From a virus (taxonomy: Duplodnaviria; Heunggongvirae; Uroviricota; Caudoviricetes), in the IMG/VR virus record IMGVR_UViG_2563366972_000008, positions 1 to 39,130 of that record: DNA of 39,130 nucleotides; one strand, given 5' to 3'. The first letter of the stretch is position 1. Every line of letters starts with the position of its first letter. The notes below the pieces were generated by a model that saw only the letters and a list, made by a program, of their open reading frames with translations, was not told where the DNA came from and did no database searches. Of the stretch, positions 1-39,130 are shown in pieces. The translations under genes were made by a program, and so were the position numbers.

Positions 1-341
1 TGTCTGGTCGCCTCATCTTTTGAAGCAGACGCCGATGATGCCGATGACGCCGCCGAACTGGCGGACGATGCGGCAGCCGTTTTTGAGGATTCTGCGCTGG
101 TTTCCGACGCTTTCGCGTTCGTCTCGGATGTCTTCGCTGCGGAAGCAGACCTTGCTGCTGCGCTGGCCTGTTCAGTGGCTTCGCCAGCCTTCGTTGTGGC
201 TGTTGAAGCAGACGATGCGGCGCTTTCTGCCGATTTTCCGGCGGCGGTGGCACTGGCTGAGGCCTGCCCGGCACTTGTTGACGCGGCACTGGCAGACGAC
301 GCAGCCGCTGTTTTTGAGCCTGCCGCAGCCGAGGCGCTCTG
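1..341 (-). other. In-frame continuation of the tail-fiber reading frame downstream of a TGA stop; Ala/Ser/Thr-rich repeats, runs off the window edge
   Basis: Reverse-strand translation continues in the same frame after the stop at 342-344 with the same low-complexity Ala/Ser-rich composition and no further stop to position 1 (hand translation). Confidence 0.4.
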
Positions 342-1208
342 TCACGCTGCCGTTTCAGAAGACCTGGCGTTTGTCTCGGACGTTTTTGCCGCTTTCGCGG
401 AATTGTCTGCCGCCGTTGCCGAGGAAGCGGCACTACTGGCGCTCGAGGCTGCGCTCGTTTCTGATGATTTTGCCGCCTCTTTTGAAGCCGACGCATCCCT
501 GGCTGAGGTGGCAGCTTCTGACGCCTTCGTGGTCGCGGCGGATGCAGAAGTGGCTGCTGATTGTTGTGACGCTGCCGCATTCGTTTCTGACGTTTTCGCC
601 GCACCGGCACTGGTGGCCGCCGCGCTTTTTGAGGACTCTGCAGCGGCAGCACTTTTTAATGCTTCAGTGGCCTTTGTTGATGCCGTTCCTGCGCTGGAAG
701 ACGCTGACTGAGCCGACGAAGCGGCCTGTCCGGCTGACGTGCTGGCTGCACGTGCTGAATCTGCAGCATCAGTCGCATGGGTTGCCGCCTCACGGGCAGA
801 TGTGCTGGCATCACTGGCTGACTTCTTCGCGGCTGCCGTGTTCTGTGCCACCACGGACGCGTTACGCGCCACCTCTTCCACCATCAGTTCAAAACGGCGC
901 AGTGCCTCAGGACGGGCATCATCCTCCGTCATGGCACCGAGAAAATCATTCAGCGTACCGGGTCGGGAATCTTCATACACGGTGATGGTCCCGGCATGTG
1001 ACGGCGGGAATCCCTCCACCAACAGAATAACGCTGTACTGCCCGTACTCAACGTCCATGCTGTAACGCCCGGCTTCATCCGGATTTTCTGAGGCCAGCGT
1101 GTTCACCACCACCGTGGTGCTGTTACGTTTTGCTTTCAGCTGGATTGTGCAGTTCTGTACCGGTTTTCCTGTGCCGTCTTTCAGTACACCTGAAATCTTT
1201 ACTGCCAT
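342..1208 (-). CDS. stf: Side tail fiber protein (Stf-like) N-terminal portion, ended by an in-frame TGA
   Basis: Translation MAVKISGVLKDGTGKPVQNCTIQLKA... matches the conserved N-terminus of lambdoid side tail fibers as recalled, followed by Ala/Ser-rich repeats. ATG at 1208 preferred over the GTG at 1214 used by the ORF track. Confidence 0.7.
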   Translation of the reverse strand: MAVKISGVLKDGTGKPVQNCTIQLKAKRNSTTVVVNTLASENPDEAGRYSMDVEYGQYSVILLVEGFPPSHAGTITVYEDSRPGTLNDFLGAMTEDDARPEALRRFELMVEEVARNASVVAQNTAAAKKSASDASTSAREAATHATDAADSARAASTSAGQAASSAQSASSSAGTASTKATEALKSAAAAESSKSAAATSAGAAKTSETNAAASQQSAATSASAATTKASEAATSARDASASKEAAKSSETSAASSASSAASSATAADNSAKAAKTSETNARSSETAA

Positions 1209-1219
1209 ATTCACCCCAC

Positions 1220-1245
1220 AAAAAAGCCCGCCTGAACCGGCGGGC
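1220..1245 (-). terminator. Rho-independent terminator downstream of lom
   Basis: GC-rich inverted repeat GCCCGCC/GGCGGGC followed by a U-run on the minus-strand transcript. Confidence 0.5.
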
Positions 1246-1272
1246 TGTCATAACACTGTGTTACCTGGCTAA

Positions 1273-1872
1273 TCAGAATTTATAACCGACACCCACGATG
1301 AAACCGTCAGTGCGCCAGTCACCACTGCCGGAGCCTTCATAAGCAATATCAATGGCCACGGATTCGGTCGGGTTAAACTGCACGCCAGCCCCCCACGCCA
1401 GAGACGTGTTGCTGTGGCGACCGTCATCACTTCCGGTCAGCACATCGTGCTTTTTCCCCTTGTTGTCAGTTACGCGAAGATAATCCCCGGAGAAAGTCGA
1501 CACACGGCTGTAAGCTACACCCGCCATCGCATACGCGCTGAACCATTCATTCACGCGCACAGACGGCCCCGCCATTACGCTGAACCAGCGGTTACGAACG
1601 GAATCTTCATGCCAGCGGGTATCGCTGTAACGGGTCAGCTGGCGATTCTTGTCTCCTGCATAGCTGAATGACGTCACCAGCCCCAGTGTGTCCGTAAACT
1701 CATAACGGTATTTCACGTTAATCCCGTTCAGATCATCGCTGCCGGGGACGTTCGTCGAGGCATGAAGATACCCCGCGCTCAGCGTGGACTGATGTTCAGA
1801 CGCCCATGCAGGCGCACCGGATACGGCCAGACAAATGGCTGCGGACAAAATTGCTGCACAAACTTTACGCAT
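1273..1872 (-). CDS. lom: Lom/Ail-family outer membrane beta-barrel protein
   Basis: 199-aa ORF with signal peptide, alternating beta-strand pattern and C-terminal GYKF; sits after J as in lambda. Confidence 0.9.
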   Translation of the reverse strand: MRKVCAAILSAAICLAVSGAPAWASEHQSTLSAGYLHASTNVPGSDDLNGINVKYRYEFTDTLGLVTSFSYAGDKNRQLTRYSDTRWHEDSVRNRWFSVMAGPSVRVNEWFSAYAMAGVAYSRVSTFSGDYLRVTDNKGKKHDVLTGSDDGRHSNTSLAWGAGVQFNPTESVAIDIAYEGSGSGDWRTDGFIVGVGYKF

Positions 1873-1942: not shown

Positions 1943-4900
1943 TCAACGAATACTGATGCCGGAAGCGGCTTTTTTGGTCACAATCACCGTACAGTCGGTG
2001 ATATTGCCTGCCCCCTGATTGCCTTTCTGGAAAATCTTAAACTCCAGAGTGACGCTTCCCCTGCCACTCGGCATATCAATAACTGCACTGTAACTACCGG
2101 GAATGGCCCCTTTAGTTTCTCTGGATGCGATTAATACGCCGTTTTTGCGAACTTCAAAACCATAACCCGTGTATCGCGTGCCTCCTGGGTTATTTCCGCT
2201 CCCCGGATCGTCATACGCTATACCGTTAAAAATAATGGGCGGAATAATAATCTGGCGGTCAAAGTTATGATCATCGCTGATGGTGACTGTAACCGTACCG
2301 TTTGGTGTTTCCGTGTTACCCCACGTACCGACTTTTTTCGGGAAGGCTTTTGATACAGCTTTAACGAAATCTCCTCTGACCTGGGTCGCCTCCAGCATGC
2401 CCTTAATCGTACAGTTCTGGTTAATCGTGACATTGTTGAGCGTTCCTGAGTTCGCATTCACACTGCCACTGATATCCGCATTTTTCGCCGTCAGTCTCCC
2501 GTCTGATGTCAGGGAAAATGCCGGAGGATTACCGCCGCTGGTAATGGTGGGGGCCGTCAGGCGTTTCAGGAACACTTCATTCATGAATATCTGATCGCCC
2601 TGACCAACAAACATCGGCTTTGTGTTGCCATTCGCAGGATTAATCATCGCAATCCTGTCTGCTGCCAGCAGCACCTGACTCTGCATGCCGTCAGGGGTGT
2701 TCTCAATACCGGCACCGATACCCGCAATATAAAGGCGTCCGTCCTGCATCTGCTGCAGCTTCACTGCCCACATGCTGTTCAGGTTATTATTTGTATCAAC
2801 CTGAACCTTCTGTATCTGCTGGATCGCTGCACTCTGGTCTTCCAGTTTCTTATTGACGGTCTGTGTTATTTCATTGCTGACATCCGTTATGGACGTCCTG
2901 ATTTCAGTCAGGTCAGGCGCAAGCTGACCGTTATCAATCTGCGTCCACAGCTCCTGAGCCAGATGGGTTTTCCCTATCTCGCCTTTGAAAAAATCCAGAT
3001 AGCCTGATGCATCATCACTCGGCTGACCGACAGCCTCCACGAATGCCGATTTGCCAACGGTGTTCACACTGCGAACGTAAAAATAATAATCATGGCCCGG
3101 TTTGATATTGATACTGGCGGCTATCCAGTACAGTGCCGTACCAAGATAACGCGCGCTGGTTTCAACCTGCCTGATATCCGCAATCCGTTTTTCCGAGAAC
3201 CAGAACTCAAACTGTACCGTCGGGTCATAAACCGCAAGATGCGGCGTGGCGGTTATCTGAAAATAGCCCGGTGTCAGCTCAATCCGAGACGGCGCTGCCG
3301 GTGCGGCAATCCGGAACGATACCGATGCCGGATCGCCCTGCTGTCCCCACGCATTTACCGCCCGGACTGTCAGCCTGTAGTTCCCCAACGCCAGTTGTGT
3401 GAAGCGGTATGTGGTTTCCGTCGTCCGGGCCGTGCTGACCAGCCGCTCACTGCCGTCGTCCGCTGTTACGGTCAGACGGAGCAGGAAGCTCACGCCCTTC
3501 ACCACCTTCGGTGTGTCCCAGCGCGCCAGCACCTGATATTCCCCGCTGTCTGCGGTGACTTCGGCAGTCAGGTGCTGCACCGCTGGCGGCGTGACACCAT
3601 TCACCGTGCCGCTCTGGTCGCCGTCAAAGTGCGCCCCGTTATCCACGATGGCCTCTTTTTCCGGCACATGCTGCACGGCAGTGATGGCATACGTGCCGTC
3701 GTCGTTCTCACGGATACTCACACAGCGGAACAGGCGCTGGCGCAACGTCGGCAACTTCAGCCCCCACACGCTGTATTCAGCAACGCCGTCAGGAACACGG
3801 CTCACTTTCACCTTCACGCCGTCGGTGACGGACTGGACCTCCACGCTGACCGGATTACCACCTCCGTCAACCAGGCTTATCAGCGTGGTGCCGGAGGATG
3901 GCAGCGTGATTTCACGGTCGAGCGTCAGCGTCCGGGTCTGGCTGTTCACCGCCAGCACGCGCCCGCCGGTGCTGATACCCGCATAGTCATCATCGCAGAT
4001 TTCAATGACATCCCCCGGTACATGGCGAAGCCCTTCCGCACCCACGCTGAAGTCCACGGTCTGCGTTTCCAGCAGTTCCGTTTTAATCAGCCACAGCCCG
4101 GCGCGGTGCGCCTGCCCCCGACTGGTACAGCCAAAGGCATCCATCTTCGTGACGTTACGACCGTAACGGGCAATGGCCTGCGTGTCCTCCACAAGCTCTG
4201 TCGCCGTCTCCCAGCCGTTATCCGGGTCAATCCAGTTCACCTCAACGGCATTATGGCGGTCCTTCAGGGCGCTGAAGCTGTAGCGGAACGGCGCGCCATC
4301 ATCCGGCATCACCACATTACTGCGGTTATAGGTCCACACCTTATCCGACGGTCGGTCCTGCACAAACGTCAGCGTCTGCCCGTTCCATACCGGCATACAG
4401 CGCATCGCCGAGCAGAAATCACTGAGCACATCCCACGCCTTACGCTGTGTGGTCAGGTACGCATTACAGGTGATGCGCGGCTCCGTGCCGCCAAAGCCGT
4501 CCGGCACTGACTGGTCGCAATTCTGGCCGATGACATACAGCGCCCATTTATCCACATCCGCCGCACCAAGACGTTTCCCCATGCCGTAGCGCGGATGGGT
4601 CAGCATATCCCACAGACACCAGGCCATGTTGTTGCTGTATGCCGGTTTAAACGTTCCGTCCCAGATACCGCTGTATTGCCGCGTCTGCGGGTTATAGTTC
4701 GACGGCACCTGCAGAATACGCCCGCGCAGATGATAATTACGGCTCACCTGCTGGCTGCCGAACTGCTCCGAATCCACCTGTACGCCGACCAGTGCCGTGT
4801 TCGGGTAGCACTGTTTCACATCGATGATTTCGGTGTATGACGACCAGAGCGTTTTGTTCTGCAGCTGGTCTGTGGTGCTGTCCGGCGTCATCCTGCGCAT

Positions 4901-5440
4901 CCGTATACTGAACGGGCGCGGCGGCAGGTTACCCACCACCACCGAGGCCAGATACTGCGAGGTGGTTTTGCCCTTAATGGTGATGTCTTTTTCCGTCACC
5001 CAGCCACCATTACGCTGTATCTGAACCAGCAGGCGGACTTCCGACGGATTCCTGTCCCCCTTTGAGGTGGTTTCCACCAGTGCCTGCACGCCGAAGGTAA
5101 AACGCAGTCGGTCAATGTTTGCCGACGTGATGGTCCAGGTGATCGGCGTGTCGTATTTCACTTCCGTACCCAGCACCGTCTCGGAACCGGAGGATTCAAA
5201 CCCCTCCGGCGGAGTCTGCTCCTGCTCACCTGCCCGGAACACCACCGTGACGCCGGATATATTGGTATTCCCCTCACTGTCCAGCACCGGCGTACTGTTC
5301 AGCAGCACGCTTTTTAATCCATCCACCGGACCTTCAATCGGCCCTTCGCTGATGGCATCGATCACACTCAGCAGCTGCGTGGACTTCAGGTTGTCCTTCG
5401 CTTCGCGCGGGGTATGCCCCTTACTGCTGCCTTTACCCAT
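1943..5440 (-). CDS. J: Tail tip / host specificity protein J
   Basis: 1165-aa ORF in the J position between I and lom; size and context match the lambda central tail fiber. Confidence 0.9.
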
Positions 5441-5500
5441 TCGTCATGCTCCATAAACGATAAAACCGCCCGGAGGCGGTTTCACATAAAACATTTTGCA

Positions 5501-6172
5501 TCAGCGACCAATCACCACAACCTGACCACCGTCCCCTTCGTCTGCCGTGCTGATCTCCTGAGAAACCACCCGCGACCCCACACGCATTTCACCGTACAGA
5601 ACAGGCAAAACATTGCCCTGGGCAACCATGTTATCCAGTGAGGAGAAATAGGTGTTCTGTTTGCCGTTATCTGTACTGGCTGCCGTGGGCGTCCTGGCTT
5701 TCGGTGCCAGCATCTGCGCCACACCACCGAGCACCATACTGGCACCGAGAGAAAACAGGATGCCGGTCATACCACCGGCCCCAATGGCTGCCCCCCATGC
5801 TGCAAGGGTGGCTCCGGCAGTAAAGAATGATCCGGCAATGGCGGCAGCCCCCAGAACAATCTGGAATACGCCCCCTGACTTGGCCCCGGCGACTCTGGGA
5901 ACAATATGAATCACAGCGCCGTCAGGCAGAGTCTCATGTAACTGCGCCGTTAACCCGGACGTGCTGACGTCCCGCCCGGCAATCCGTACCTGATACCAGC
6001 CGTCGCTCAGTTTCTGACGAAACGCCGGGAGCTGTGTGGCCAGTGCGCGGATGGCTTCAGCCCCCGTTTTCACACGAAGGTCGATGCGGCGGCCAAATCG
6101 TTGCAAATCCCCGTAAAGGCAGATGCGTGCCATTCCCGGTGACGCCAGAGGGAGTGTGTGCGTCGCTGCCAT
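5501..6172 (-). CDS. I: Tail assembly protein I
   Basis: 223-aa ORF with Gly/Ala-rich hydrophobic C-terminal half, between K and J as in lambda. Confidence 0.8.
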   Translation of the reverse strand: MAATHTLPLASPGMARICLYGDLQRFGRRIDLRVKTGAEAIRALATQLPAFRQKLSDGWYQVRIAGRDVSTSGLTAQLHETLPDGAVIHIVPRVAGAKSGGVFQIVLGAAAIAGSFFTAGATLAAWGAAIGAGGMTGILFSLGASMVLGGVAQMLAPKARTPTAASTDNGKQNTYFSSLDNMVAQGNVLPVLYGEMRVGSRVVSQEISTADEGDGGQVVVIGR

Positions 6173-6822
6173 TTGTCGGTATACCTCTCTCGTTTGCTCA
6201 GTTGTTCAGGAATATGGTGCAGCAGCTCGCCGTCACCACAGTAAATGGCGGCATGATTCGGCACCGATGAACCAAAGCAGCACAGCAGCACATCGCCCGG
6301 TTGTGCTGATGACAACGCCACCTGATACAGCCCTGTGGCCTCCAGATTATCCAGATAGAGATTCTGACCGTGACGCCACCAGTCATCCTCGCGATGAAAA
6401 TCCGGCATCTCAATCCCCGCCAGATGGTAAGCATCCCGGAACAGCGTGTAACAGTCCGTCACCCCGTGCTCAAAGCGCCGCCCGGAAAGATGTGGCACAC
6501 AGCGGAACTTGTGAATCGCCCCCCGGCAAACCAGCCACCACGGCAAATCACTCTGCACCTGCAGCCGCCGGTCGGTCTCACTCAGCCAGGGCAGACCACC
6601 GGGGTGGCTGTGGACCAGCGCCACAATCTCTCCCTGCATTTCTGCACTCAGCCAGTCCTCCGGCGACATCCGGAAATACGCCTCCGGCTCACCGGATATA
6701 TTCACGCAGGGAAAATATCTTTCCCCCTCCGGTGTTCTCACCACGAAGCCACACGACTCCGCTGGCGCACATCGCCGGGCGTGCGCCAGAATCGCTGATT
6801 CTGTCTCTGTCATGGGATTCAC
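6070..6822 (-). CDS. K: Tail assembly protein K (NlpC/P60 and JAMM-like)
   Basis: Translation MTETESAILAHARRC...HSHPGG matches lambda K as recalled; true start probably the ATG giving MTETES. Confidence 0.8.
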   Translation of the reverse strand: MNPMTETESAILAHARRCAPAESCGFVVRTPEGERYFPCVNISGEPEAYFRMSPEDWLSAEMQGEIVALVHSHPGGLPWLSETDRRLQVQSDLPWWLVCRGAIHKFRCVPHLSGRRFEHGVTDCYTLFRDAYHLAGIEMPDFHREDDWWRHGQNLYLDNLEATGLYQVALSSAQPGDVLLCCFGSSVPNHAAIYCGDGELLHHIPEQLSKRERYTDKWQRRTHSLWRHREWHASAFTGICNDLAAASTFV

Positions 6823-7517
6823 TGCGAAAGTTTGTTAATGGAAAGGAAGCCGCCAAAGTTGCCGACGTTATTGCGAAACTTACAGCCACTCAGGCATTTG
6901 CTACATTTATCCTTCGTGATATCGGACGTTGGCTGGTCATATTCATCCGCGACAGCCGGGCCATCATAACCGCACTCATCGCCGCGGTAGATCCAGGTGC
7001 AGGTGTTGGCCAGCATGATGCGCCCCGGAAAAACAGCGCCATCCGTTTCCGTCGGTGTGGACAGCACAAAAGAGGCACTGACCGCGCTCAGTTCGCTGCA
7101 CTGTTCGATGCGCCAGCGGCTGATCACCTCCTGCTCCGGATCGGCGTCACTGTTTCCGTTGACGAAGTTCACCGCATCCAGAAAACGGGCGTAAACCTTA
7201 CGCCGGACCACCGTTCCGCCGACCAGACTCTGCAGATCTTCCGCCATCCCGGTGACCATGCCGTACAGATTAGAGACTTTCAGCGTTGGCCTTGCACTGG
7301 CTCCTTTGCCGTTCATCTCAAATCCGCTTCCATGAATGGGATAGGCCTGATACTGCCGCCCCTGCCAGGTGACTGGTTCACCTTTTTCGTTCTGCTCATT
7401 ACAGAAGAAATAACGATCTCCGCCGACCTCTGTCAGATCAATTTCCCAGAGCACGACCAGCGCGGATTGCTCCGTTTTAGTGCACTCATTGAGTGTTTCC
7501 TGCTGTATATCCTGCAT
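6819..7517 (-). CDS. L: Minor tail protein L
   Basis: 232-aa translation MQDIQQETLNECTKTEQSALVVLWEIDLTEVGG... is near-identical to lambda L as recalled. Confidence 0.9.
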   Translation of the reverse strand: MQDIQQETLNECTKTEQSALVVLWEIDLTEVGGDRYFFCNEQNEKGEPVTWQGRQYQAYPIHGSGFEMNGKGASARPTLKVSNLYGMVTGMAEDLQSLVGGTVVRRKVYARFLDAVNFVNGNSDADPEQEVISRWRIEQCSELSAVSASFVLSTPTETDGAVFPGRIMLANTCTWIYRGDECGYDGPAVADEYDQPTSDITKDKCSKCLSGCKFRNNVGNFGGFLSINKLSQ

Positions 7518-7873
7518 CAGTGAGTGACCTCTTCAAAGGTACAGTTAAAATCGGTATACATGGCATTATCCGAAATGCTCCACTCCCTGCAGACAACCCG
7601 GACAGTCCTGTTGTGTTTTGGCGGACGCCACAAAAAAGCACGAATCCCGGCATGACGGGATAAAAAACTGTCCAGCGCGGCACGGGAATATTCATCTGTG
7701 ACACGAAATACCGGTTTAAACGTTTTCAGATCCGCATTCAGACCACCAGCCCGTCGCTGTTCATATCCGTCACCAAACTTTACCGTAATAACTGATGGCT
7801 TTCGTGTCGTCTCCATCCCCTCACGGGGGATCCAGTTAAAAACTTCAGGCTCAGGCACTGTACAATCCTCCAT
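7517..7873 (-). CDS. M: Minor tail protein M
   Basis: Conserved FNWIPREGM...VKFGDGY resembles lambda M. Start uncertain: ATG 7873 fits the alignment, ATG 7816 has the better RBS. Confidence 0.7.
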   Translation of the reverse strand: MEDCTVPEPEVFNWIPREGMETTRKPSVITVKFGDGYEQRRAGGLNADLKTFKPVFRVTDEYSRAALDSFLSRHAGIRAFLWRPPKHNRTVRVVCREWSISDNAMYTDFNCTFEEVTH

Positions 7874-10800
7874 CCCGACGCGATGACTGCATAATTGACA
7901 CAACCCTGCTGTCGATCAGATCCACCAGTCCCCTGGCTGAGCGCGCATCTATCTCGCCATTGCTCCCTTGATTCTGAATGCTGATGTGATACACGGGAGA
8001 ATAAACAAATCCACCGCCACCATTCACATTTCCAATGGCCCTGACCCCAAGAGAGCCGTCCGCTGCCCGTGTCAGTGGCATGATTGCTTCAGGCCCGGCC
8101 TCGCCCATCAACCCGGCACCTTTCGCAAAAGCAAAATACGTCGGTGTATCCACAATAGTGTTACTGTAAGCACTCAGATTTGCCGATGTGTAAACACCAC
8201 CTTTTGCGTTTGCCACTGCCCCCGAAATCCATCCGCCGACCGTACCAAGCCACCCTCCGGCACCGGAGAGTGATTTCAGTCCGTTAACAATGGCTGCATT
8301 CATCAGAATTTTTGAAACTTCCCGGAGAACTGAACTCCCCCAGTTCCTCCAGTCCACAACATTCCCGGCCAGTGCATCGGAAATATTTGATACCAGCCCG
8401 TCCATCGTGGAAACGACAGCATCTGCCGCCTGTGAAGCATAATCGGTGGCACTGTCTGCCCAGTTGGTCAGTCCCTCCTGGAGTCCGGCATTCCAGTTAT
8501 TACGTAAAGCATCGGCCTTTGCATAATAATCCTGCTGATCGCTGAGACGCTCTTCCAGATATTTTTTATTCAGTTCTTTCTCCTGTTTCCACAGGGCTTC
8601 TTCAATTTCTCCGGCCTGATACTGTCTCAGCAGCTCGTTATTTTTCTGCTCAAACGCCTGCCGGATACTCCACATTTCCTGGAGTCGTTCACGCATCCGT
8701 GAGCCTTCACCATATCCCAGCAACTGCGCTTCGTCAGATGCCCGGGCACTGGCATTACTGTCCGCCAGACTGCTCTCATACGCAGCAAGCTGCTCACGAA
8801 TCTTTTTCTGGTCGATGAGTGCTGCATTCTGCAAAAGCGTTTTTTTCTGCGCTTCTGACAGGGTTGATAATTCGCCCTGACTGACCTGATATTTCATCTT
8901 AGCCAGTTCAGTATTCTGCCCTGCCAGTGCTATCTGCTCTTTCTGCTGTTTAATCAGCCGTTTATAAATATCTTCTGTTTTTTCCGCTTCGGTCTTTTTA
9001 TGCGCTTTGGGTTTATTTGCCTGGTTATTTCGCCATGCATCCAGTGAATTATTAATATAATTCAGTCTTGCTGTCTGATATGCCTCTCCCACAAAGCCGA
9101 GATCATCCGCAGCATAACCCAGGCGGGCACGCTCACGGGCTTCCCCCTTCAGGCGGGACAGAGCCAGTTCGCGCTCGCTGTTATTCAGTGCTGTCTGCTG
9201 TTTATCATCCAGGGTGGCCTGTGGCAGCCGTAATGGTACATTCACCAGCCCCTGACGCTGCTGAAGTAACTCATTACCAAGCCCGAGAAGGTGATTAAAC
9301 TCAGTGTACTGACCATTCATGATCAACAGGGACTGATACGCTTTATTTTGCTCCGCCGCCTGTTGACGAATCAACGCCACCCGTCGCTCCTCCAGCCCGG
9401 CAAGCACATCCTGAATGGATTGCGCTTTGCCCTGCATTTGAGTGAGGCGAGACTGTTCAACTGCCAGTTGATTTGTTGCTTCTGCAAGCCCTTCTGTGAC
9501 AGTTTTTACCGACGTCATGTGGTTAATCATAAAACCGTTATCGGTTGTCCAGCCCGGGTTTGCCAGCACATACTGATAGCCAGCAATTTTTTCCTGTAAG
9601 GATTTAATCTTACTTTTCTGCTCGTCAATTAACCTGTTTTGCTCATCAAGTGCCTGCCGCGTCTTTTCCTCATTATCTGACGCTTCAGGAAGCGACATTG
9701 CCGACGTTTTCTGGCGAATTTCGTCGATTGTTGCGGCATACTGGCGTGCAGATTCTCTGGCCTGCTCCTGATTCTGATACATCGTGTACCAGGCCGCGGC
9801 TCCCAGCATGACAAGCCCCGGCACACCCCCAACCAGCCCCAGTGCCCCACTTAACAAACGGCTCCCCACTGACGTGACAGTATTCAGCGTTGTCTGTGCT
9901 GCTGTTCTGGCCGCAATATTACGGGTAAGTGATGCCTGGGCAGCAGCCAGTTTCGCTTCTGCGGCTGCCTGCCTTTCTGTACCACGGGTAGCCACAACTG
10001 CCTGTTGCGCACGATAAACCGCCGCACGCGCCCTGGCTGTTGCTATCTGTGTCCCCCGGAGTTGCGCTTCCGCAAGAGCCACTTCGTTTCTGGCTGCAGT
10101 AATTAATCCGGCAGTTGCAGATCCAGCAGAAGACGCCATATTGCCAAAATATCGGGCTACCCCGACGGCAACCAGAGCACCGGCAGCGGTTGCCACGGTG
10201 TCAATATTGCCTGCAATACCATTCAGCACACCGGAGAGCGTCTTCGTCACTCCGCTTGCCTCGTTCGCACCACCAACCCAGGCCATAAAGGCGTTTTCAA
10301 CTTTGGTTGCAGAGGATGAAACCGTATCAGGCATTGCCGCATATTCATCACGTAATGCCCCAAGCTGACTAATCAGTGCAGGAACAACCTTATCGGTGGT
10401 CAGTTTTCCGTTATCCGCCATGGCCTTCAGATCCTTACGGGCAACACCCATTCCCGCAGCCAGCGCACGAATAACACGATCGCCGTTCTCATTCACCGAG
10501 TTAAACTCTTCACCGCGCAGCACTCCCTGCGCCAGTGCCTGACTGAACTGCGTGATCACCGAACTGGCTTCTGCTGTACTGGCACCGGATAAATTCAGGC
10601 CCGTGGAGATCGCCTCGGTGACTTTCAGTACTTCCTCAGAACTGTAACCATACTCCCGCATGGAAGCTGCAGAACGGGCAAAAAGGCGTGCGTTATCAGA
10701 AAACGCCGTCCCCGTTTTCTGGCTGATCGCCATTAATTCACGCTGTGATGCCTGAAAATCATCACTGGACTGTGAGGCCTGCTTCAGACGGGCATTTACT

Positions 10801-11084
10801 GAACTCCATTCATCCGCAAGAGATATAAGATGTCCAGTGGCAAAAGCACCGGCAAATGCGCCAGCCATGTTCAGTGCCGAAGATTTAGCTGTATTTATCT
10901 GATCCGTCACTTCTGCCAGTGCACGCCGCATTTCACGGGATGCAGCAGCGGACTGCCGGCCTCCGTTCTGCATGGTACGGTAGTAATCCTGCCCCATACG
11001 CGAAGCCCGGGAGATCTCTGACTGGAATGACCGGGAATTTGCCGAGATTTTAATAATCAGTTCACGTAATGTCGCCACACTCAT
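7851..11084 (-). CDS. H: Tail tape measure protein (H-like)
   Basis: 1077-aa ORF, Ala/Gln-rich and coiled-coil-like, between the G/T chaperone and M. Confidence 0.9.
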   Translation of the reverse strand: MSVATLRELIIKISANSRSFQSEISRASRMGQDYYRTMQNGGRQSAAASREMRRALAEVTDQINTAKSSALNMAGAFAGAFATGHLISLADEWSSVNARLKQASQSSDDFQASQRELMAISQKTGTAFSDNARLFARSAASMREYGYSSEEVLKVTEAISTGLNLSGASTAEASSVITQFSQALAQGVLRGEEFNSVNENGDRVIRALAAGMGVARKDLKAMADNGKLTTDKVVPALISQLGALRDEYAAMPDTVSSSATKVENAFMAWVGGANEASGVTKTLSGVLNGIAGNIDTVATAAGALVAVGVARYFGNMASSAGSATAGLITAARNEVALAEAQLRGTQIATARARAAVYRAQQAVVATRGTERQAAAEAKLAAAQASLTRNIAARTAAQTTLNTVTSVGSRLLSGALGLVGGVPGLVMLGAAAWYTMYQNQEQARESARQYAATIDEIRQKTSAMSLPEASDNEEKTRQALDEQNRLIDEQKSKIKSLQEKIAGYQYVLANPGWTTDNGFMINHMTSVKTVTEGLAEATNQLAVEQSRLTQMQGKAQSIQDVLAGLEERRVALIRQQAAEQNKAYQSLLIMNGQYTEFNHLLGLGNELLQQRQGLVNVPLRLPQATLDDKQQTALNNSERELALSRLKGEARERARLGYAADDLGFVGEAYQTARLNYINNSLDAWRNNQANKPKAHKKTEAEKTEDIYKRLIKQQKEQIALAGQNTELAKMKYQVSQGELSTLSEAQKKTLLQNAALIDQKKIREQLAAYESSLADSNASARASDEAQLLGYGEGSRMRERLQEMWSIRQAFEQKNNELLRQYQAGEIEEALWKQEKELNKKYLEERLSDQQDYYAKADALRNNWNAGLQEGLTNWADSATDYASQAADAVVSTMDGLVSNISDALAGNVVDWRNWGSSVLREVSKILMNAAIVNGLKSLSGAGGWLGTVGGWISGAVANAKGGVYTSANLSAYSNTIVDTPTYFAFAKGAGLMGEAGPEAIMPLTRAADGSLGVRAIGNVNGGGGFVYSPVYHISIQNQGSNGEIDARSARGLVDLIDSRVVSIMQSSRRDGGLYSA

Positions 11085-13709: not shown

Positions 13710-14027
13710 CTACAAAGGAATAAAACGATAAGGCTCCAGCAGAGAAGAAAAACCAAACGGGATTGGTGCCTTACTGACATCTGAGGAATTTTCCCGGTTT
13801 TCGTACCAGTGCCCGACCAGCAACATGAGCGCCAGCAAAACATCATCAGCTATAAGCACCCCTTCAGGATCACTCTCTGGCACCGTCTCCTCATAAAGCT
13901 TACGGTTGATAAAATTTTCTGCCTTACGGCAGGCAGCCCGGAAATACAGCATCAGTAACTCATCATCAGTTGCATCATCTGTATCAATACGGCACTGCGC
14001 CCTGAGTTTTTCCACTATTGCTGCCAT
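13710..14027 (-). CDS. Head-tail connector protein (gp6-like)
   Basis: ORF immediately downstream of the major capsid gene; start chosen at ATG 14027 with CAGGAG RBS. Confidence 0.65.
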   Translation of the reverse strand: MAAIVEKLRAQCRIDTDDATDDELLMLYFRAACRKAENFINRKLYEETVPESDPEGVLIADDVLLALMLLVGHWYENRENSSDVSKAPIPFGFSSLLEPYRFIPL

Positions 14028-14071
14028 CAGAAACTCCTGCCCGCAGCACTGTGCGGGCATAAAAAACTGCA

Positions 14072-15295
14072 TTACGCAGCGGCTTTCTGGCGGGTTGCAG
14101 CCCCAATTTTCATCAGCTTAATCGCCTGAGAATCCACCAGCATACCGCCGGTTCGCTTGGTGGTATAAAAGCCCACAAACGGTTTGTTGGTGTAAGGATC
14201 GCGCAGGATGCGGGTGCCGATGCGATCAACGATGGTATAGCCACGTTTGAAATTACCAAACGCAATGGCTTTTGCATCGGCGGCAATATCCGGCATCTGC
14301 TCATTTTCAACGATGCCATACCCTGCCAGAGAAGAAGGCTGACCCAGCTCAATACCCGGACGCCACAGATAATTTCCGTCGTTATCCTTCAGCAGACGAA
14401 TGGCAAACAGGCTGCTGTTGTTCATCATGAACTTCGCGCCGCTGCGGTGCGCCTTGCGCAGGGTGTAAATCAGTTTAATAATCGCATCGGCGGTCACGCC
14501 AGAAGCCGCACCGGAAGCAATGTGCTGAAGTTTGCCAAATGCACGGGTCTTGTCATCTTCATCAGTGGACTCATAAGCCAGAAAACCTTTTGGTTTTTTG
14601 CTGCCGTCGCCACTGGTAAAGGCAATTTCTTCCTGTTCGGCAAATTCCAGCGCCAGTTCACTGTTGATCCAGTCTTCCACATTGAAGAAAGCATCATCGA
14701 GCATTTTCTGGGTGGCCTGCGGGTTGCCGTAGATTTCCCCCATAAAGGGTTCAATCAGACCCAGTTTTGAGGTGGCGGTTTCAGGACGTGCATCCGTTTC
14801 CCCCACCCATCCGGACGTTGTGCCGCCCAGATTCACCAGTTTTTTATAATCCGAGCCACCGAGGGTGATCACAGTGGCTTCCTGGCGCATCACCACCTCA
14901 TCTTTCAGCAGCGTCAGAATGGTGCGATCCAGTTCTTCCGGAATGGCATAACCACCATCTTCATCATTGCCCACCTGCAGCGCCTTACGCTCAAGCTCAC
15001 GCAGACCGTCTTCACGCCCCTTGCGCATAAAACCGATAAACGCTTCTTTATGTTCACCGGCAACTTTATTTTGCGTGCCGCCTGCCGGACGTTTAACTTC
15101 AGCCAGCTCAGCCTCAAGATCGCTTTTCAGGTTCTCCAGCTCGCTGATTTGCCCGTTCAGGCTTTCCACCTGTTCGGCCAGCTTGCCTTTTTCCTGTTCG
15201 ATCGCGTCAATGCGCTTGTCGTTTTTTGCCTTAAAATCGTCAAACTTCTGCTGCAGCTCCTGCGCGACCTGCTCCACATCTTTAATGTCAGCCAT
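14072..15295 (-). CDS. Major capsid protein, HK97 family
   Basis: 407-aa ORF with N-terminal coiled-coil delta-like region, downstream of the prohead protease. Confidence 0.85.
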   Translation of the reverse strand: MADIKDVEQVAQELQQKFDDFKAKNDKRIDAIEQEKGKLAEQVESLNGQISELENLKSDLEAELAEVKRPAGGTQNKVAGEHKEAFIGFMRKGREDGLRELERKALQVGNDEDGGYAIPEELDRTILTLLKDEVVMRQEATVITLGGSDYKKLVNLGGTTSGWVGETDARPETATSKLGLIEPFMGEIYGNPQATQKMLDDAFFNVEDWINSELALEFAEQEEIAFTSGDGSKKPKGFLAYESTDEDDKTRAFGKLQHIASGAASGVTADAIIKLIYTLRKAHRSGAKFMMNNSSLFAIRLLKDNDGNYLWRPGIELGQPSSLAGYGIVENEQMPDIAADAKAIAFGNFKRGYTIVDRIGTRILRDPYTNKPFVGFYTTKRTGGMLVDSQAIKLMKIGAATRQKAAA

Positions 15296-15309
15296 TATTT
15301 TTCTCCTGG

Positions 15310-15960
15310 TTAAAATTTAAGATTTTTCAGTGCATTCAGTGCGGCATCCACATCCTCAGCATCACGCAGGGATAAAGCGCCATATCCCCCGGCCATGAAT
15401 GCTTTGGCCTGGGTTCGCGAGAGTCCAACATCGCGCAGGACCCGCTCAATAATTTTCTGATCAGGGATCTCCCCACGCGCCAGCGCATTTTTCACATCGC
15501 TGATACGTGCCTCATCATTGCAAGGAAACGTCACCAGACTGACCTCCCACAGGTCGATCTCTTTCAGCAGGAATACCCCTTTTTCACGGTCGTACTCCCA
15601 GTCTTTCAGGATGTAGCCAATAGAAAGGCCGGTTAAAGAACCGGCCTTCATATGGGCATGTGCACGTTTTGCCAGGGGATCATCATCAACGAGTAATCGC
15701 CCCCTGACATAAAGCCCGACATCATCTTCTTTCATTTCGGTGTACACACCGATGGGCTCATCCATACGGTGCTGCCAGAGCAACGCAGGCAGCGCCTTTT
15801 TTTCGCTCCATTTCTGGAGTGTTGTGGTAAAGGCACCGGGGACCACCACATCATCGTGGCTGTCCTTAACACCAAAAACAGAACCGTAACCTTCAAATTC
15901 CCCGGAATCACTGACGGATTTCAGGTTCAGCGGTATATCAAGACGCTGTTTTGTCTGCAT
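15310..15960 (-). CDS. Prohead protease, HK97 family
   Basis: ORF between portal and capsid; AGGAGAG RBS before the ATG at 15960. Confidence 0.8.
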   Translation of the reverse strand: MQTKQRLDIPLNLKSVSDSGEFEGYGSVFGVKDSHDDVVVPGAFTTTLQKWSEKKALPALLWQHRMDEPIGVYTEMKEDDVGLYVRGRLLVDDDPLAKRAHAHMKAGSLTGLSIGYILKDWEYDREKGVFLLKEIDLWEVSLVTFPCNDEARISDVKNALARGEIPDQKIIERVLRDVGLSRTQAKAFMAGGYGALSLRDAEDVDAALNALKNLKF

Positions 15961-17179
15961 CTCCACTCTCCTTTTTCTTACCGTTGTCATCGCCAGCAGA
16001 GGGACTGGTGGTCATGTTCATCGGTGTCAGATACACATCACCGCCCGGGCGAGGATTCATATCCTCCAGATCACGGCAGTCATTAGGGGAATAAATCCCC
16101 CAGTTGATCCCCGTGGCATACGCTTCAAAGCGGGATTTCATGTCGCCACGCAACAATGCTCCGGCATTAAATTTGGCGTAAAACTTCCCCTGCTTGCTCT
16201 CCCTGACCAGCCCTGTATTGATCCGCTGTTCAATACGGGTCAGATACGGCACAAGGGAATAGTTAATGAAACCAAGCCCCAGCTCTTCAATATTGTTGAA
16301 GGTGGCGCGATCGGTGTTCTGCACCATATGCAGCGGCACGCGGAACAGGCGACAGATTTCTTCCAGCTGAAACTTGCGGGTTTCCAGGAACTGGCTGTCC
16401 TCGGCATTCAGTGCCACCGTTTTCCAGTCCAGCCCCATTTCCAGAATCATCGGACGATGAGAGTTTCCCAGCCCGACATGCCGTTCCTCAAAGTCCTTTT
16501 TGATACGCGCATAAGCCTGATCAGAAAGTTGTTGATCCGTACGCAACACACCGGATGTCACAGCGCCGTTACCAAACAGCCTGGCGCCGTGCTCCTCAGT
16601 TGCCGCTGCCAGTGAAATGGCCTCACGCGCATATGCAATGGGATTCAGCCCGACCAGCCCGTCCAGCGTCAGAGTACGCACATGCCAGATTTCATCCTGG
16701 GTCAGCACATCCACGGAACCATCCGGAAACGTCACCTGATAAACCGGCTGCCACTGACAGTTCAGCTTCGGCTCCACACAACCCGGATCTATCGGAAGAA
16801 GCTCCACCACTTCTCCCAGCGCCTTCACCTTGTAAGCGTAAAAATTACCCCGCAGACACAGGCAGACGATAACCAGCTCCCAGAATTCCTGCGGTGTCAT
16901 GTAGCCATTGGGTTTTGCCGAAATCAGCTTATGCAGTCGTTCATCCACCGCCCGTGTTTTAAGGGTGCCGGTGATTTTGTAGAGGCTGCAGGGCAGCATA
17001 CCAACAGACTCCGCCAGCACTCTGACGCAGGAATACACCGCCGTCAGCCGCATGGCCCGCTGACTGCTGATCCGCTTTCCGGTATAGGTGTCGTATGACA
17101 ATCCCAGCTCTTCCGCAAGCATCCCGGGTGTTGTAACGGGAGTGTTATTTTTGCGTTGAAAAAGCCCCTGGAAAAACAT
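15938..17179 (-). CDS. Portal protein, HK97 family
   Basis: 413-aa ORF directly downstream of the large terminase. Confidence 0.85.
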   Translation of the reverse strand: MFFQGLFQRKNNTPVTTPGMLAEELGLSYDTYTGKRISSQRAMRLTAVYSCVRVLAESVGMLPCSLYKITGTLKTRAVDERLHKLISAKPNGYMTPQEFWELVIVCLCLRGNFYAYKVKALGEVVELLPIDPGCVEPKLNCQWQPVYQVTFPDGSVDVLTQDEIWHVRTLTLDGLVGLNPIAYAREAISLAAATEEHGARLFGNGAVTSGVLRTDQQLSDQAYARIKKDFEERHVGLGNSHRPMILEMGLDWKTVALNAEDSQFLETRKFQLEEICRLFRVPLHMVQNTDRATFNNIEELGLGFINYSLVPYLTRIEQRINTGLVRESKQGKFYAKFNAGALLRGDMKSRFEAYATGINWGIYSPNDCRDLEDMNPRPGGDVYLTPMNMTTSPSAGDDNGKKKESGDADKTAS

Positions 17180-22030: not shown

Positions 22031-22105
<75 letters not shown>

Positions 22106-22108
22106 ATA

Positions 22109-22184
<76 letters not shown>

Positions 22185-22186
22185 AC

Positions 22187-22263
22187 TGGACCGCCACCGG
22201 GGACTCGAACCTCGCACACTCAACTTAAAGGGTTGACGCTCTTTCCTGATGAGCTAGTGGCGG
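22187..22263 (-). tRNA. tRNA-like gene with noncanonical anticodon loop CCUUUAA (possibly Lys-UUU; C at position 33)
   Basis: Acceptor CCGCCAC/GTGGCGG, T-arm with TTCGAGT loop and encoded CCA; anticodon loop lacks the usual U33 and the T-stem has one mismatch. Confidence 0.55.
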
Positions 22264-22264
22264 T

Positions 22265-22340
22265 TGGTGGCCCTTGCTGGATTTGAACCAGCGACCTGGC
22301 GATTATGAGTCGCTCGCTCTCACCACTGAGCTAAAGGGCC
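22265..22340 (-). tRNA. tRNA with CAU anticodon, ileX/ileZ-like (Ile2 or Met)
   Basis: Acceptor GGCCCTT/AAGGGCC, anticodon loop CUCAUAA, TTCAAAT T-loop, CCA; resembles the Ile2 tRNA carried by lambdoid phages downstream of Q. Confidence 0.8.
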
Positions 22341-22572: not shown

Positions 22573-23484
22573 GTGGCTATTTCTCTTGCGCAAAGGATGC
22601 TTTTGATGACGCAGCAACTCGAAAACATGCCAATAACAGAAATCGAAATTGCCTACGGTGGAGAGGCATACGCAGATAATCAGATCGACGCGAAAACATT
22701 AGGCGAAGCCTTAACCTCTCTTAGTGCCCTGATTGAACACGCCGAAAAAATAATTAATGGCGAAACAGCAGAGCCGAAAGTCAACATCAAGGCAACAAAA
22801 GAAGGTTCATTTACTTTGCTTGTTGCTGTGATGGGGAGCATAAAAACTATTAACGCCCTTGGCCTCGTTGCAGGTGGTGGAGTTGCCGCAGGTGGCGTAC
22901 TCGGGATAATCGAATGGCTCAAAGGGCGTAAAATCAGCTCCATTGTCGTCGATGAACAAAAAGATACAGCAGAAATCGAAGTGGATGGTGAGAAGGTTAA
23001 ATGCAGTAACGACATTCAAAAATTAATAACCAGTCCAATCATCCGAAAAGAACTGGATAAATTAATCTATAAACCCCTGCAGACTGAAAAACCATCCACG
23101 TTCTCAGTTTCACAGCAGAAGCATAAGGTAGTCAGGGTGACGCAAGCTGAAGCAGTAAGTTTTAAAACTGCAAAATCCACCTTTGTCGAGAAAACGCACG
23201 TAACGACACGCCAAGCTAATGTACATTTTGCTAATGTTCGATTCAAGCAAGGCAAAAGCTGGGATATCATCCTGCCAAATGGCGAAGAAGTTAGCGCATC
23301 TATGAAAGATGAGGCTTTTCTTGAACGGGTTGAACACAACCAAGCAGCATTCTGTAAGGGTGATCTTTTTGTTGTAGAACTGACAGAAACAACAAAAGAA
23401 ACAAATGGCGCGCTGTCTAAACCACGCTATAGTATTACTAAGGTTATACGCCACAGAGCGGCGGCAGATAGGAAACTACTTTAA
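22573..23484 (+). CDS. Hypothetical protein A of accessory cassette: hydrophobic Gly-rich segment plus beta-rich C-terminal domain
   Basis: 303-aa ORF from GTG 22573; likelier start ATG 22606 behind an AAGGA RBS. Segment LLVAVMGSIKTINALGLVAGGGVAAGGVLGIIEWL; AT-rich codon usage unlike flanking phage genes. Confidence 0.7.
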   Translation: MAISLAQRMLLMTQQLENMPITEIEIAYGGEAYADNQIDAKTLGEALTSLSALIEHAEKIINGETAEPKVNIKATKEGSFTLLVAVMGSIKTINALGLVAGGGVAAGGVLGIIEWLKGRKISSIVVDEQKDTAEIEVDGEKVKCSNDIQKLITSPIIRKELDKLIYKPLQTEKPSTFSVSQQKHKVVRVTQAEAVSFKTAKSTFVEKTHVTTRQANVHFANVRFKQGKSWDIILPNGEEVSASMKDEAFLERVEHNQAAFCKGDLFVVELTETTKETNGALSKPRYSITKVIRHRAAADRKLL

Positions 23485-36868: not shown

Positions 36869-37072
36869 ATGAGCAGCTTATTTTTAACCGAAGATGAATT
36901 GCTAATATTAACGGGCTGCAAATATGCAAGCCACCAGCGAAAATGGTTAATGGAAAACGGGCTTCCGTTCTATACCAATCGTAGTGGCAAACCGATTGTC
37001 AGCCGGGATCTATTTACCTGCAATAAAACTTTACCACCACGCGAGGTAGAGCCGAATTTTGGTGCGATCTGA
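36869..37072 (+). CDS. xis: Excisionase (Xis)
   Basis: 67-aa ORF immediately upstream of and overlapping the integrase start. Confidence 0.7.
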   Translation: MSSLFLTEDELLILTGCKYASHQRKWLMENGLPFYTNRSGKPIVSRDLFTCNKTLPPREVEPNFGAI

Positions 37073-38097
37073 TGGGAAGACGAAGGAAAAATCCTGAACA
37101 CGAAAAATTACCTCCAAATGTATACCCAAATAAATATAGTTATGTATGGAAACCAACATCCAGAGAATCTGTCACACTAACCGCCATCAAGGATGGTTTA
37201 GCTGCTTTATGGAAAAAGTATGAGGAAACTGTAAATAATCGCGATCGTGCAATGACATTCGGTCGCTTGTGGGAAAAATTCCTCGCCAGCGCCTATTACA
37301 GTGACCTTAGTCCAAGAACACAAAAAGATTATCTGCAACATCAAAAAAAGTTGCTTGCCGTATTCGGTAAGGTACCAGCGGATTCCATAAAACCAGAACA
37401 CATCCGTCGATACATGGACAAAAGAGGGGAGCAGAGTAAAACGCAAGCCAACCATGAAAAAAGCAGTATGTCCCGTGTTTACAGTTGGGGGTATGAGCGA
37501 GGGTACGTGAAGGCTAACCCATGTGCAGGTGTAAGTAAATTCAAGGCCAAAAACCGCGAACGATATGTAACCGACAAAGAATACCAGGCAGTATTAAGCG
37601 TTGCACCTCTTCCTGTTTTTATCGCAATGGAAATTGCCTATCTGTGTGCAGCGAGGGTTTCCGATGTGTTATCGCTGAAATGGGAACAGATTGGAAACGA
37701 CGGGATATTCATCCAGCAAGGGAAAACCGGAAAAAAACAGATAAAAGCATGGAGTCCACGATTACAGGCAGCGATCGAAAAAGCAAAACAGTTACCAAAA
37801 TCTGCCTATGTGATCAGCAATCAATACGGCAACCGATATATGTACAAAGGCTTTAACGAAATGTGGGTAGAAGCAAGAAATCGTGCTGGAAAAATTTCAG
37901 GTATTTTAACCGACTTCACCTTTCATGATCTGAAGGCGAAAGGAATTTCAGACTATGAAGGAAGCAGCCGGGATAAGCAACTTTTCTCTGGTCACAAAAC
38001 CGAAGGGCAAGTGCTAATCTATGACAGGAAGGTTAAAATTTCACCAACACTTAATGTCCCGTTACCTGAAAATATTCCAAGAAAATATTCCAAGTAA
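37072..38097 (+). CDS. int: Tyrosine integrase
   Basis: 341-aa ORF with tyrosine-recombinase C-terminal catalytic region, 52 bp from a tRNA gene. Confidence 0.9.
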   Translation: MGRRRKNPEHEKLPPNVYPNKYSYVWKPTSRESVTLTAIKDGLAALWKKYEETVNNRDRAMTFGRLWEKFLASAYYSDLSPRTQKDYLQHQKKLLAVFGKVPADSIKPEHIRRYMDKRGEQSKTQANHEKSSMSRVYSWGYERGYVKANPCAGVSKFKAKNRERYVTDKEYQAVLSVAPLPVFIAMEIAYLCAARVSDVLSLKWEQIGNDGIFIQQGKTGKKQIKAWSPRLQAAIEKAKQLPKSAYVISNQYGNRYMYKGFNEMWVEARNRAGKISGILTDFTFHDLKAKGISDYEGSSRDKQLFSGHKTEGQVLIYDRKVKISPTLNVPLPENIPRKYSK

Positions 38098-38149
38098 TTC
38101 CAAGTGTGATTTTTGTCACTGACTTAATGATGTGTAAGTGATTGAATTT

Positions 38150-38239
38150 TGGCGGAGAGAGGGGGATTTGAACCCCCGGTGGAGTTGCCCCCACTCCGGT
38201 TTTCGAGACCGGTCCGTTCAGCCGCTCCGGCATCTCTCC
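38150..38239 (-). tRNA. serU: tRNA-Ser (anticodon CGA), serU-like; probable attachment site
   Basis: 90-nt cloverleaf with long variable arm, anticodon loop CUCGAAA, acceptor GGAGAGA/TCTCTCC, encoded CCA. Confidence 0.85.
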
Positions 38240-38332
38240 GTTCAGATGGTTGCCATGATGCCAGGAAATTTGGCATTTTAACAGTCCCTGTCCGTGCAAT
38301 TTTGTTCAAGTGACGAGTTTGCGAGCAAAACG

Positions 38333-39130
38333 ATGATTAAGTGGCCCTGGAAAGTACAAGAATCAGCACATCAAACTGCCCTTCCCTGGCAGGAAGCACT
38401 ATCGATCCCCCTTTTAACGTGTCTGACGGAACAGGAACAAAGCAAATTAGTCACTCTTGCCGAACGTTTTTTACAGCAAAAGCGGCTTGTTCCTTTACAG
38501 GGCTTTGAACTGGATTCATTAAGAAGCTGCCGGATAGCACTTCTATTTTGCCTACCCGTTCTGGAGTTAGGACTGGAATGGCTGGATGGTTTTCATGAAG
38601 TCTTAATTTATCCTGCGCCATTTGTGGTCGATGATGAATGGGAAGACGATATCGGTCTGGTGCATAACCAACGTATTGTTCAGTCAGGTCAGAGCTGGCA
38701 GCAAGGGCCTATCGTTTTGAACTGGTTGGATATACAAGATTCTTTTGATGCTTCTGGTTTTAACCTGATTATTCATGAAGTCGCTCATAAGCTGGACACC
38801 CGTAACGGCGATCGCGCCAGCGGAGTTCCCTTTATTCCGTTGCGTGAGGTTGCTGGCTGGGAACACGATCTTCATGCTGCAATGAACAACATTCAGGAAG
38901 AAATCGAATTGGTTGGCGAGAATGCGGCGAGCATTGATGCTTATGCTGCCAGTGATCCTGCTGAATGTTTTGCCGTACTTTCTGAATATTTCTTTAGCGC
39001 CCCAGAACTTTTTGCTCCTCGTTTCCCTTCATTGTGGCAACGTTTCTGCCAATTTTATCAACAAGATCCTTTGCAGAGACTGCATCGCACTAATGATACA
39101 GACTCGTTTTCGGCGACGAATGTTCATTAA
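38333..39130 (+). CDS. mtfA: MtfA (Mlc titration factor A, zinc peptidase)
   Basis: Translation from ATG 38333 ([23 protein letters not shown]..., HEVAHKLD zinc motif) matches E. coli MtfA as recalled; host gene flanking the prophage. Confidence 0.85.

Follow-up and report, generated by a model that had tools for sequence, protein, structure and literature searches.

At the left end of a prophage stretch, the lambda-type side tail fibre gene stf stops at an in-frame TGA, and the same reading frame runs on beyond it. Does this stop reflect a genuine mutation, an error in the sequence, a codon that is read through, or the natural end of a short protein? In the window (the whole 39,130-nt stretch of DNA analysed here), we find the first of these probable, namely a recent, lineage-private nonsense mutation of GGA (Gly289) to TGA in the stf gene of a lambdoid prophage that sits at serU/mtfA in E. 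coli and otherwise looks intact. The initial annotation had offered a choice between a nonsense mutation, giving a fibre-less prophage of the lambda PaPa kind, and a sequencing error; that choice is supported by the one-base origin of the TGA from GGA. The parts of the gene are as follows.

342..1208, minus strand: truncated stf frame, 288 aa plus stop (ORF list, translation, Pfam, PHROG and nucleotide identity).
807..1208, minus strand: N-terminal tail-attachment (collar) domain, residues 1-134, kept in the truncated product (PF08400).
345..806, minus strand: Ala/Ser/Thr-rich shaft before the stop, residues 135-288 (composition).
342..344 (read 344..342), minus strand: premature TGA at stf codon 289 (base comparison and codon census).
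3..341, minus strand: untranslated stf remnant, codons 290-402, cut by the window edge (open frame, identity to homologues).

The stop claimed at 342-344 is seen in both the minus-strand ORF and its translation. The frame can start at ATG 1208, which is the start preferred by most annotators of stf homologues, or at an alternative GTG at 1214 (ORF 342..1214, minus strand). The product of the minus-strand ORF begins MAVKISGVLKDG, and its start as translated from the window is MAVKISGVLKDGTGKPV; the remaining two minus-strand frames contain many stops across the N-terminal part of the gene. Residues 1-134 match PF08400 (phage_tail_N) over the entire profile (1-134 of 134, E=1.4e-72, 242 bits against a cut-off of 26.6), and PHROG tail fibre families also match the product. 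The 1,214 nt of stf in the window show 97.6-98.3% nucleotide identity to annotated stfR or side tail fibre genes, and the genes so annotated come from isolated phages and from E. coli genomes by the thousand. Residues 135-402 are composed of 38% Ala, 27% Ser and 12% Thr. The initial annotation described this region as repeats, which holds for its low complexity and degenerate periodicity, but true tandem arrays are limited to three weak, short ones detected by Tandem Repeats Finder. The gene is a lambda-type side tail fibre Stf by descent, yet a disrupted member, because its frame ends at codon 289 where relatives encode 806-1,176 aa. The window edge cuts stf, and the rest of the gene (~2.5 kb) and tfa lie beyond window position 1.

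Three features lie immediately upstream.

1217..1246, minus strand: intrinsic-terminator-like hairpin with a T-run, between lom and stf (terminator scan).
1273..1872, minus strand: lom (Ail/Lom outer-membrane protein), intact, the upstream neighbour of stf (PF06316 at full length, E=1e-122).
1943..5440, minus strand: J (central tail fibre / host specificity), intact, 1,165 aa (3,498 nt, the annotated gpJ length in relatives).

The gene order J-lom-stf, all on the minus strand, is shared with annotated relatives and with lambda. The hairpin has an 8-bp stem with 7 G-C pairs, followed by TTTTTT, and ends just before the ribosome-binding region of stf. Its position directly after lom suggests that lom may be expressible alone from the prophage, and that stf would rely on antiterminated late transcription.

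Elsewhere in the window we note the following features.

7851..11084: tape-measure ORF, intact, 1,077 aa.
22031-22340, minus strand: four phage-borne tRNA genes (Gly-TCC, Thr-TGT, Lys-TTT and one with a CAT anticodon).
22573-23484, plus strand: 303-aa ORF on the strand opposite to its neighbours, adjoining the tRNA cluster.
37072..38097, plus strand: tyrosine integrase.
38150..38239, minus strand: tRNA-Ser(CGA).
38294..39130: host gene mtfA (Peptidase_M90), cut by the window edge.

In length, the head and tail ORFs of the window agree with their annotated counterparts. The integrase, tRNA-Ser(CGA) and mtfA at the right prophage end (37072-39130) indicate that the prophage is integrated at the tRNA gene serU, beside mtfA. 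The tRNA cluster has the Q/DUF968 region on one side and the lysis genes on the other; its CAT-anticodon member is called Met here and Ile in the UMNK88 annotation, and its tRNA-Gly(TCC) reads GGA, the codon lost at stf 289, which we regard as coincidence. For the adjoining 303-aa ORF, Pfam gives no match, NCBIfam gives NF053583 ('LAPAL motif-containing putative phage structural protein', E=1e-66) and PHROG gives phrog_3243, a family of unknown function.

The base responsible for the stop is window position 344, which is A on the plus strand where relatives have C, corresponding to GGA->TGA (G->T) on the coding strand. The base after the TGA is C, giving a UGA-C context. Base-by-base comparison with the three closest relatives (E. 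coli 13E0767 and phages Kati and PhiR34_1) gives GGA (Gly289) in all three, and the UMNK88 stf also has Gly at residue 289. In a census of sequences with identical flanks and any codon allowed at position 289 (n=97), we see GGA in 95, GAA in 2 and a stop in none. The initial annotation placed a glutamate codon at this position in related fibres; this is correct for lambda orf-401, where the aligned codon is GAA (Glu), and for the two GAA sequences of the census, but the near relatives have Gly. Of the codons found there, only GGA is one step from TGA. As GAA->TGA takes two changes, codon comparison identifies Gly rather than Glu as the ancestral residue in the lineage of the window. Alignment to intact stf genes, the check that had been proposed, returned this same one-base change, in homologues that reach ~1,132 aa and are then followed by tfa.

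Beyond the TGA, the frame continues for 113 more codons without a stop, to the window edge, with a like Ala/Ser/Thr-rich composition and with no ATG, GTG or TTG restart codon in those 113 codons. Window positions 1-343 are identical at 343/343 nt to the three intact homologues (13E0767, Kati and PhiR34_1). Among 54 distinct relatives, the variable sites after the stop are distributed over codon positions 1/2/3 as 3/9/31, and the differences comprise 215 synonymous against 45 non-synonymous changes, with an upstream pattern that is alike. Taken together, the full identity and the third-position-biased polymorphism show that the open frame is not a matter of chance, and they agree with the original description of tail-fibre-like low-complexity sequence running on to the window edge. 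By these measures the stretch after the TGA reads as normal stf coding sequence in which decay has not begun, and for this reason the stop should be either a very recent mutation or an artefact.

How widespread is the stop? The 1,272 E. coli genome records and the 6 phage records that match a 61-mer centred on the TGA all lack its exact sequence, and every best match in either set carries one mismatch. Contigs from viruses, species-representative genomes and metagenomes all lack the exact 34-mer with TGA, while the GGA version, used as a control, was found in 91 stretches of viral-contig DNA. No stop occurs at codon 289 among 93 viral contigs, and there is no record of the truncated 288-aa product in any assembly. 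For 50 related copies with both ends in the fetched locus, 47 encode 806-1,176 aa and none ends at 288 aa; the three truncated or internally deleted copies among these complete viral-contig sequences have their lesions at other sites. Relatives from Stx phages have only the first 356 nt in common with stf, and are uninformative for codon 289. The TGA is private to the window sequence among the collections searched. Intact homologues natively ending at this position, which the initial annotation named as the observation that would count against a lesion, were not found in any of the 1,272 E. coli, 6 phage or 93 viral-contig sequences.

A private and undecayed stop is also what would be seen after a sequencing, assembly or polishing error, in which case position 344 is truly C (GGA) and the organism has an unbroken stf. 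We consider this rather unlikely. More than 1,300 near-identical sequences lack the TGA, and the 343 nt identical to intact genes show no decay downstream. In addition, stf is a multi-copy gene, found at a median of 2 places per genome and at up to 14, which makes its assembly error-prone, and the window begins inside stf, at what could be a contig break. Changes of C->A / G->T are a known class of oxidative-damage artefact. Against an error, the change is a substitution and not an indel, and substitution errors in a consensus are probably uncommon. No other large phage ORF of the window is broken, which argues that there is no general quality problem. Real stf-null alleles are frequent in nature, and are common among the relatives themselves (ev099, mEp332, UMNK88 and 3/50 viral-contig copies), which counts for a real mutation.

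The immediate surroundings of the stop also bear on this choice. Three substitutions in stf are private to the window: nt 803 G->A (G268D), nt 816 G->A (synonymous) and nt 865 G->T (the nonsense change), all within 63 nt and all altering a G. The lineage therefore has other private substitutions within the same 110 nt, so the privacy of the TGA alone is not suspicious, and with two of them within 63 nt of the stop it is plausible that the lineage is simply unsampled. They fall in or near a locally divergent patch upstream of the stop (stf nt 751-850, window 359-458, minus strand) that has at least 3 differences per 50 nt relative to each of the 54 relatives, counted in 50-nt bins; no complete E. 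coli genome comes closer than 3 mismatches to a 61-mer taken from it. Intragenic gene conversion was considered as a source of the patch and rejected, as there is no paralogous match or donor within stf. We continue to favour a real nonsense mutation.

A third reading accepts the UGA as real and holds that it is leaky or recoded in a programmed way, by near-cognate tRNA-Trp or tRNA-Cys, by a suppressor tRNA or as selenocysteine, so that some or all Stf is full-length; we regard this as very improbable. The stop is UGA followed by C, the context that Poole and colleagues in 1995 are said to have found to be the weakest terminator in E. coli, and the frame downstream is fully intact. None of the 97 flank-identical homologues has a stop, Cys or Trp codon at codon 289, and hence nothing about the stop appears conserved or programmed. 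A UCA-anticodon tRNA is absent from the five tRNAs of the window (Gly-TCC, Thr-TGT, Lys-TTT, Met-CAT and Ser-CGA), no RNA hairpin stands out after the stop (86 nt from the stop, z=+1.59; 192 of 200 shuffles fold as well or better), and no recoding or SECIS family has an Rfam match in the window. Selenocysteine insertion and programmed read-through are ruled out by the unconserved stop and by the lack of hairpin, Rfam match and suppressor tRNA in the window. Near-cognate tRNAs are documented to read through UGA at a low level in E. coli, where the products were detected with the reduced-function RF2 of K-12 and were undetectable with the RF2-B variant (PMC5373646). A fibre trimer needs three full-length chains, so read-through at the level of a few percent would be expected to yield very few fibres. 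It is also highly doubtful that a real but slightly leaky UGA-C stop places Trp or Cys at codon 289 and gives some full-length Stf and mixed virions. If it did, one lysogen would release mostly fibre-less virions and a few with fibres, a form of translational bet-hedging between slow-adsorbing phage (suited to biofilm or gut) and fast-adsorbing phage (planktonic).

Finally, the notion of a native C-terminus, with the prophage naturally encoding a short, collar-only Stf-N and the distal fibre encoded separately, can be set aside with near certainty: short N-terminal Stf-like families do exist in PHROG (phrog_6129, 277 positions, and phrog_3279, 396 positions), but these are most simply seen as collected broken genes such as lambda orf-401, and the short protein is ruled out by a post-stop sequence that continues intact 1,132-aa genes base for base, by the lack of any in-frame ATG, GTG or TTG from which a second protein could start in the next 113 codons, and by the relatives, none of which ends here (the three short copies of 50 being lesions elsewhere).

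The shaft region also carries two long plus-strand ORFs antisense to stf, which raises the separate matter of whether either is a gene.

20..985, plus strand: spurious antisense ORF, 321 aa (stops in 50/54 relatives, substitution pattern).
175..711, plus strand: spurious antisense ORF, 178 aa (composition, by synonymous-codon permutation).

Both had been called spurious from the outset, and neither is a gene. The accompanying statement that every frame is open was too broad: stop counts in window 1..810 are 1, 0 and 22 for the plus frames and 7, 1 and 1 for the minus frames, so that four of the six are nearly open, but one plus frame (22 stops) and one minus frame (7) are closed. ORF 175..711 is open in 54/54 relatives, and 69% of synonymous-codon permutations equal or exceed its run. 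Its openness follows from composition alone, because stops in this frame need Tyr, His or Gln codons in stf, which are mostly absent from the shaft; a conserved overlapping gene is ruled out, since synonymous-codon permutation reproduces the open run. TCA codons are abundant in stf. The frame relation of this ORF to stf is that of the annotated orf206b of lambda.

The region of ORF 20..985 has a 326-codon open run, against a permutation mean of 110, and 0/2,000 synonymous permutations reach it. The run is this long because stf almost never places an NCT, NTT or NTC codon before a codon starting with A: there is 1 such junction in stf codons 75-396, against 8.5 expected. No such depletion is seen in the other genes of the window (188 observed vs 203 expected), and relatives have 1-5 of these junctions in the stf shaft. 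Amplification of codon pairs within degenerate repeats is a possible cause of the depletion. As a gene, 20..985 is ruled out: the frame is broken in 50/54 relatives and shows no coding-type constraint, with 61 synonymous vs 1,133 non-synonymous differences.

Similar antisense ORFs over the 5' part of stf have entered the databases, as a 'hypothetical protein' in ev099 (locus 3443-4866) and phi458 (locus 3443-4741), and as orf206b in lambda (J02459, 20147-20767); in ev099 and phi458 the sense N-terminal portion of stf is unannotated. These are the same compositional ORFs as those in the window, and the two found here should not be annotated. There are also weak Rfam matches to the Salmonella sRNA isrG at window 1-208 and 392-628 (plus strand), antisense to the stf shaft. 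At 22.7 and 22.5 bits (E about 0.001) they fall far short of the gathering score of 100, and a shared tail-fibre-like character of the sequences is their probable source.

What would the nonsense mutation mean for the phage? Judging from lambda, late transcription should pass through J-lom-stf, and translation from ATG 1208 would end at UGA codon 289. The fragment released would have 288 aa, comprising the N-terminal collar domain and 154 residues of Ala/Ser-rich shaft, and would lack the distal three quarters of the fibre with its Gp34-like trimerisation domain, Collar domain, fibre repeats and receptor-binding tip. Indeed, PF08400 is the only Pfam match in the truncated product, while the full-length protein adds distal Gp34_trimer, Collar and Phage_fiber. 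The collar of Ur-lambda, a dodecamer at the gpV/gpM junction, is built from Stf residues 1-94, and four trimeric fibres bind OmpC and make adsorption 10-30x faster with plaque counts unchanged, so the fibres are dispensable (PMC12617516). In lambda PaPa, the frameshifted stf keeps the N-terminal domain, fibres are absent, and Stf was undetected in virions by mass spectrometry (PMC10721106). If the case of lambda PaPa is a guide, the 288-aa fragment is probably not assembled onto virions, and particles without side fibres would adsorb more slowly and still infect via J. Virions of this kind, fibre-less and infecting via J, are what we would expect from the prophage: as in a stf-null phage of the lambda PaPa type, the window combines a stf lesion with full-length J, L, K, I, tape-measure and head ORFs. 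Mutants null for stf arise quickly and are favoured in structured media, and stf mutations were found in 19/21 large-plaque variants (PMC2762979).

The appropriate annotation for this copy of stf is a pseudogene, or an entry marked for checking at read level, rather than a "tail fibre protein" of 288 aa. Provided that the mutation is real, it adds a further natural case of lambdoid side tail fibres being dispensable and often lost, and this bears on attempts to predict prophage host range or adsorption from sequence.

A lesion of this sort is of an ordinary, already known kind, and broken stf genes recur in the family. Lambda PaPa (orf-401 / orf-314) resembles the window in gene family, in the J-lom-stf position, in having its lesion in the shaft and in retaining a collar-bearing N-terminal fragment, with J and the tail genes otherwise intact; it is fibre-less but viable, which for the window is only expected. 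Its lesion is a 1-nt frameshift after ~390 residues, whereas the window has a TGA substitution at codon 289. The two genes share 86.8% nucleotide identity over the first 915 nt only, their shaft and distal parts differ, and lambda has Glu at the affected position where the lineage of the window has Gly.

Phage ev099 (LR597635) has an stf of the same allele family, 94% identical in amino acids along 1,132 residues, and, like the window, carries a single-base nonsense change to TGA with in-frame homology beyond it. In this isolated phage, however, the change is CGA->TGA at codon 723, a C->T transition, against a G->T transversion at codon 289 in the window; the ev099 stop lies at locus 5673-5675, and the gene is annotated as two adjacent tail fibre CDSs. 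The laboratory phage mEp332 has a disrupted copy of the same stf family, but here through a 1-nt deletion at stf nt 550 that leaves a 226-aa fragment. Most similar to the window is the prophage of E. coli UMNK88 (98% over 20 kb), whose stf is frameshifted and not interrupted by a nonsense codon; the best match of the window to a complete E. coli genome is 98%, and none is identical. In the UMNK88 prophage, stf and the tape-measure gene are both annotated as frameshifted (locus 4244-7208 and 13715-16946). The intact genes of the StfR type, 13E0767 stfR and those of Kati and PhiR34_1, share the N-terminal domain, the shaft and the gene neighbourhood with the window, but have GGA at codon 289 and encode 1,132 aa with tfa directly after, where the window copy stops.
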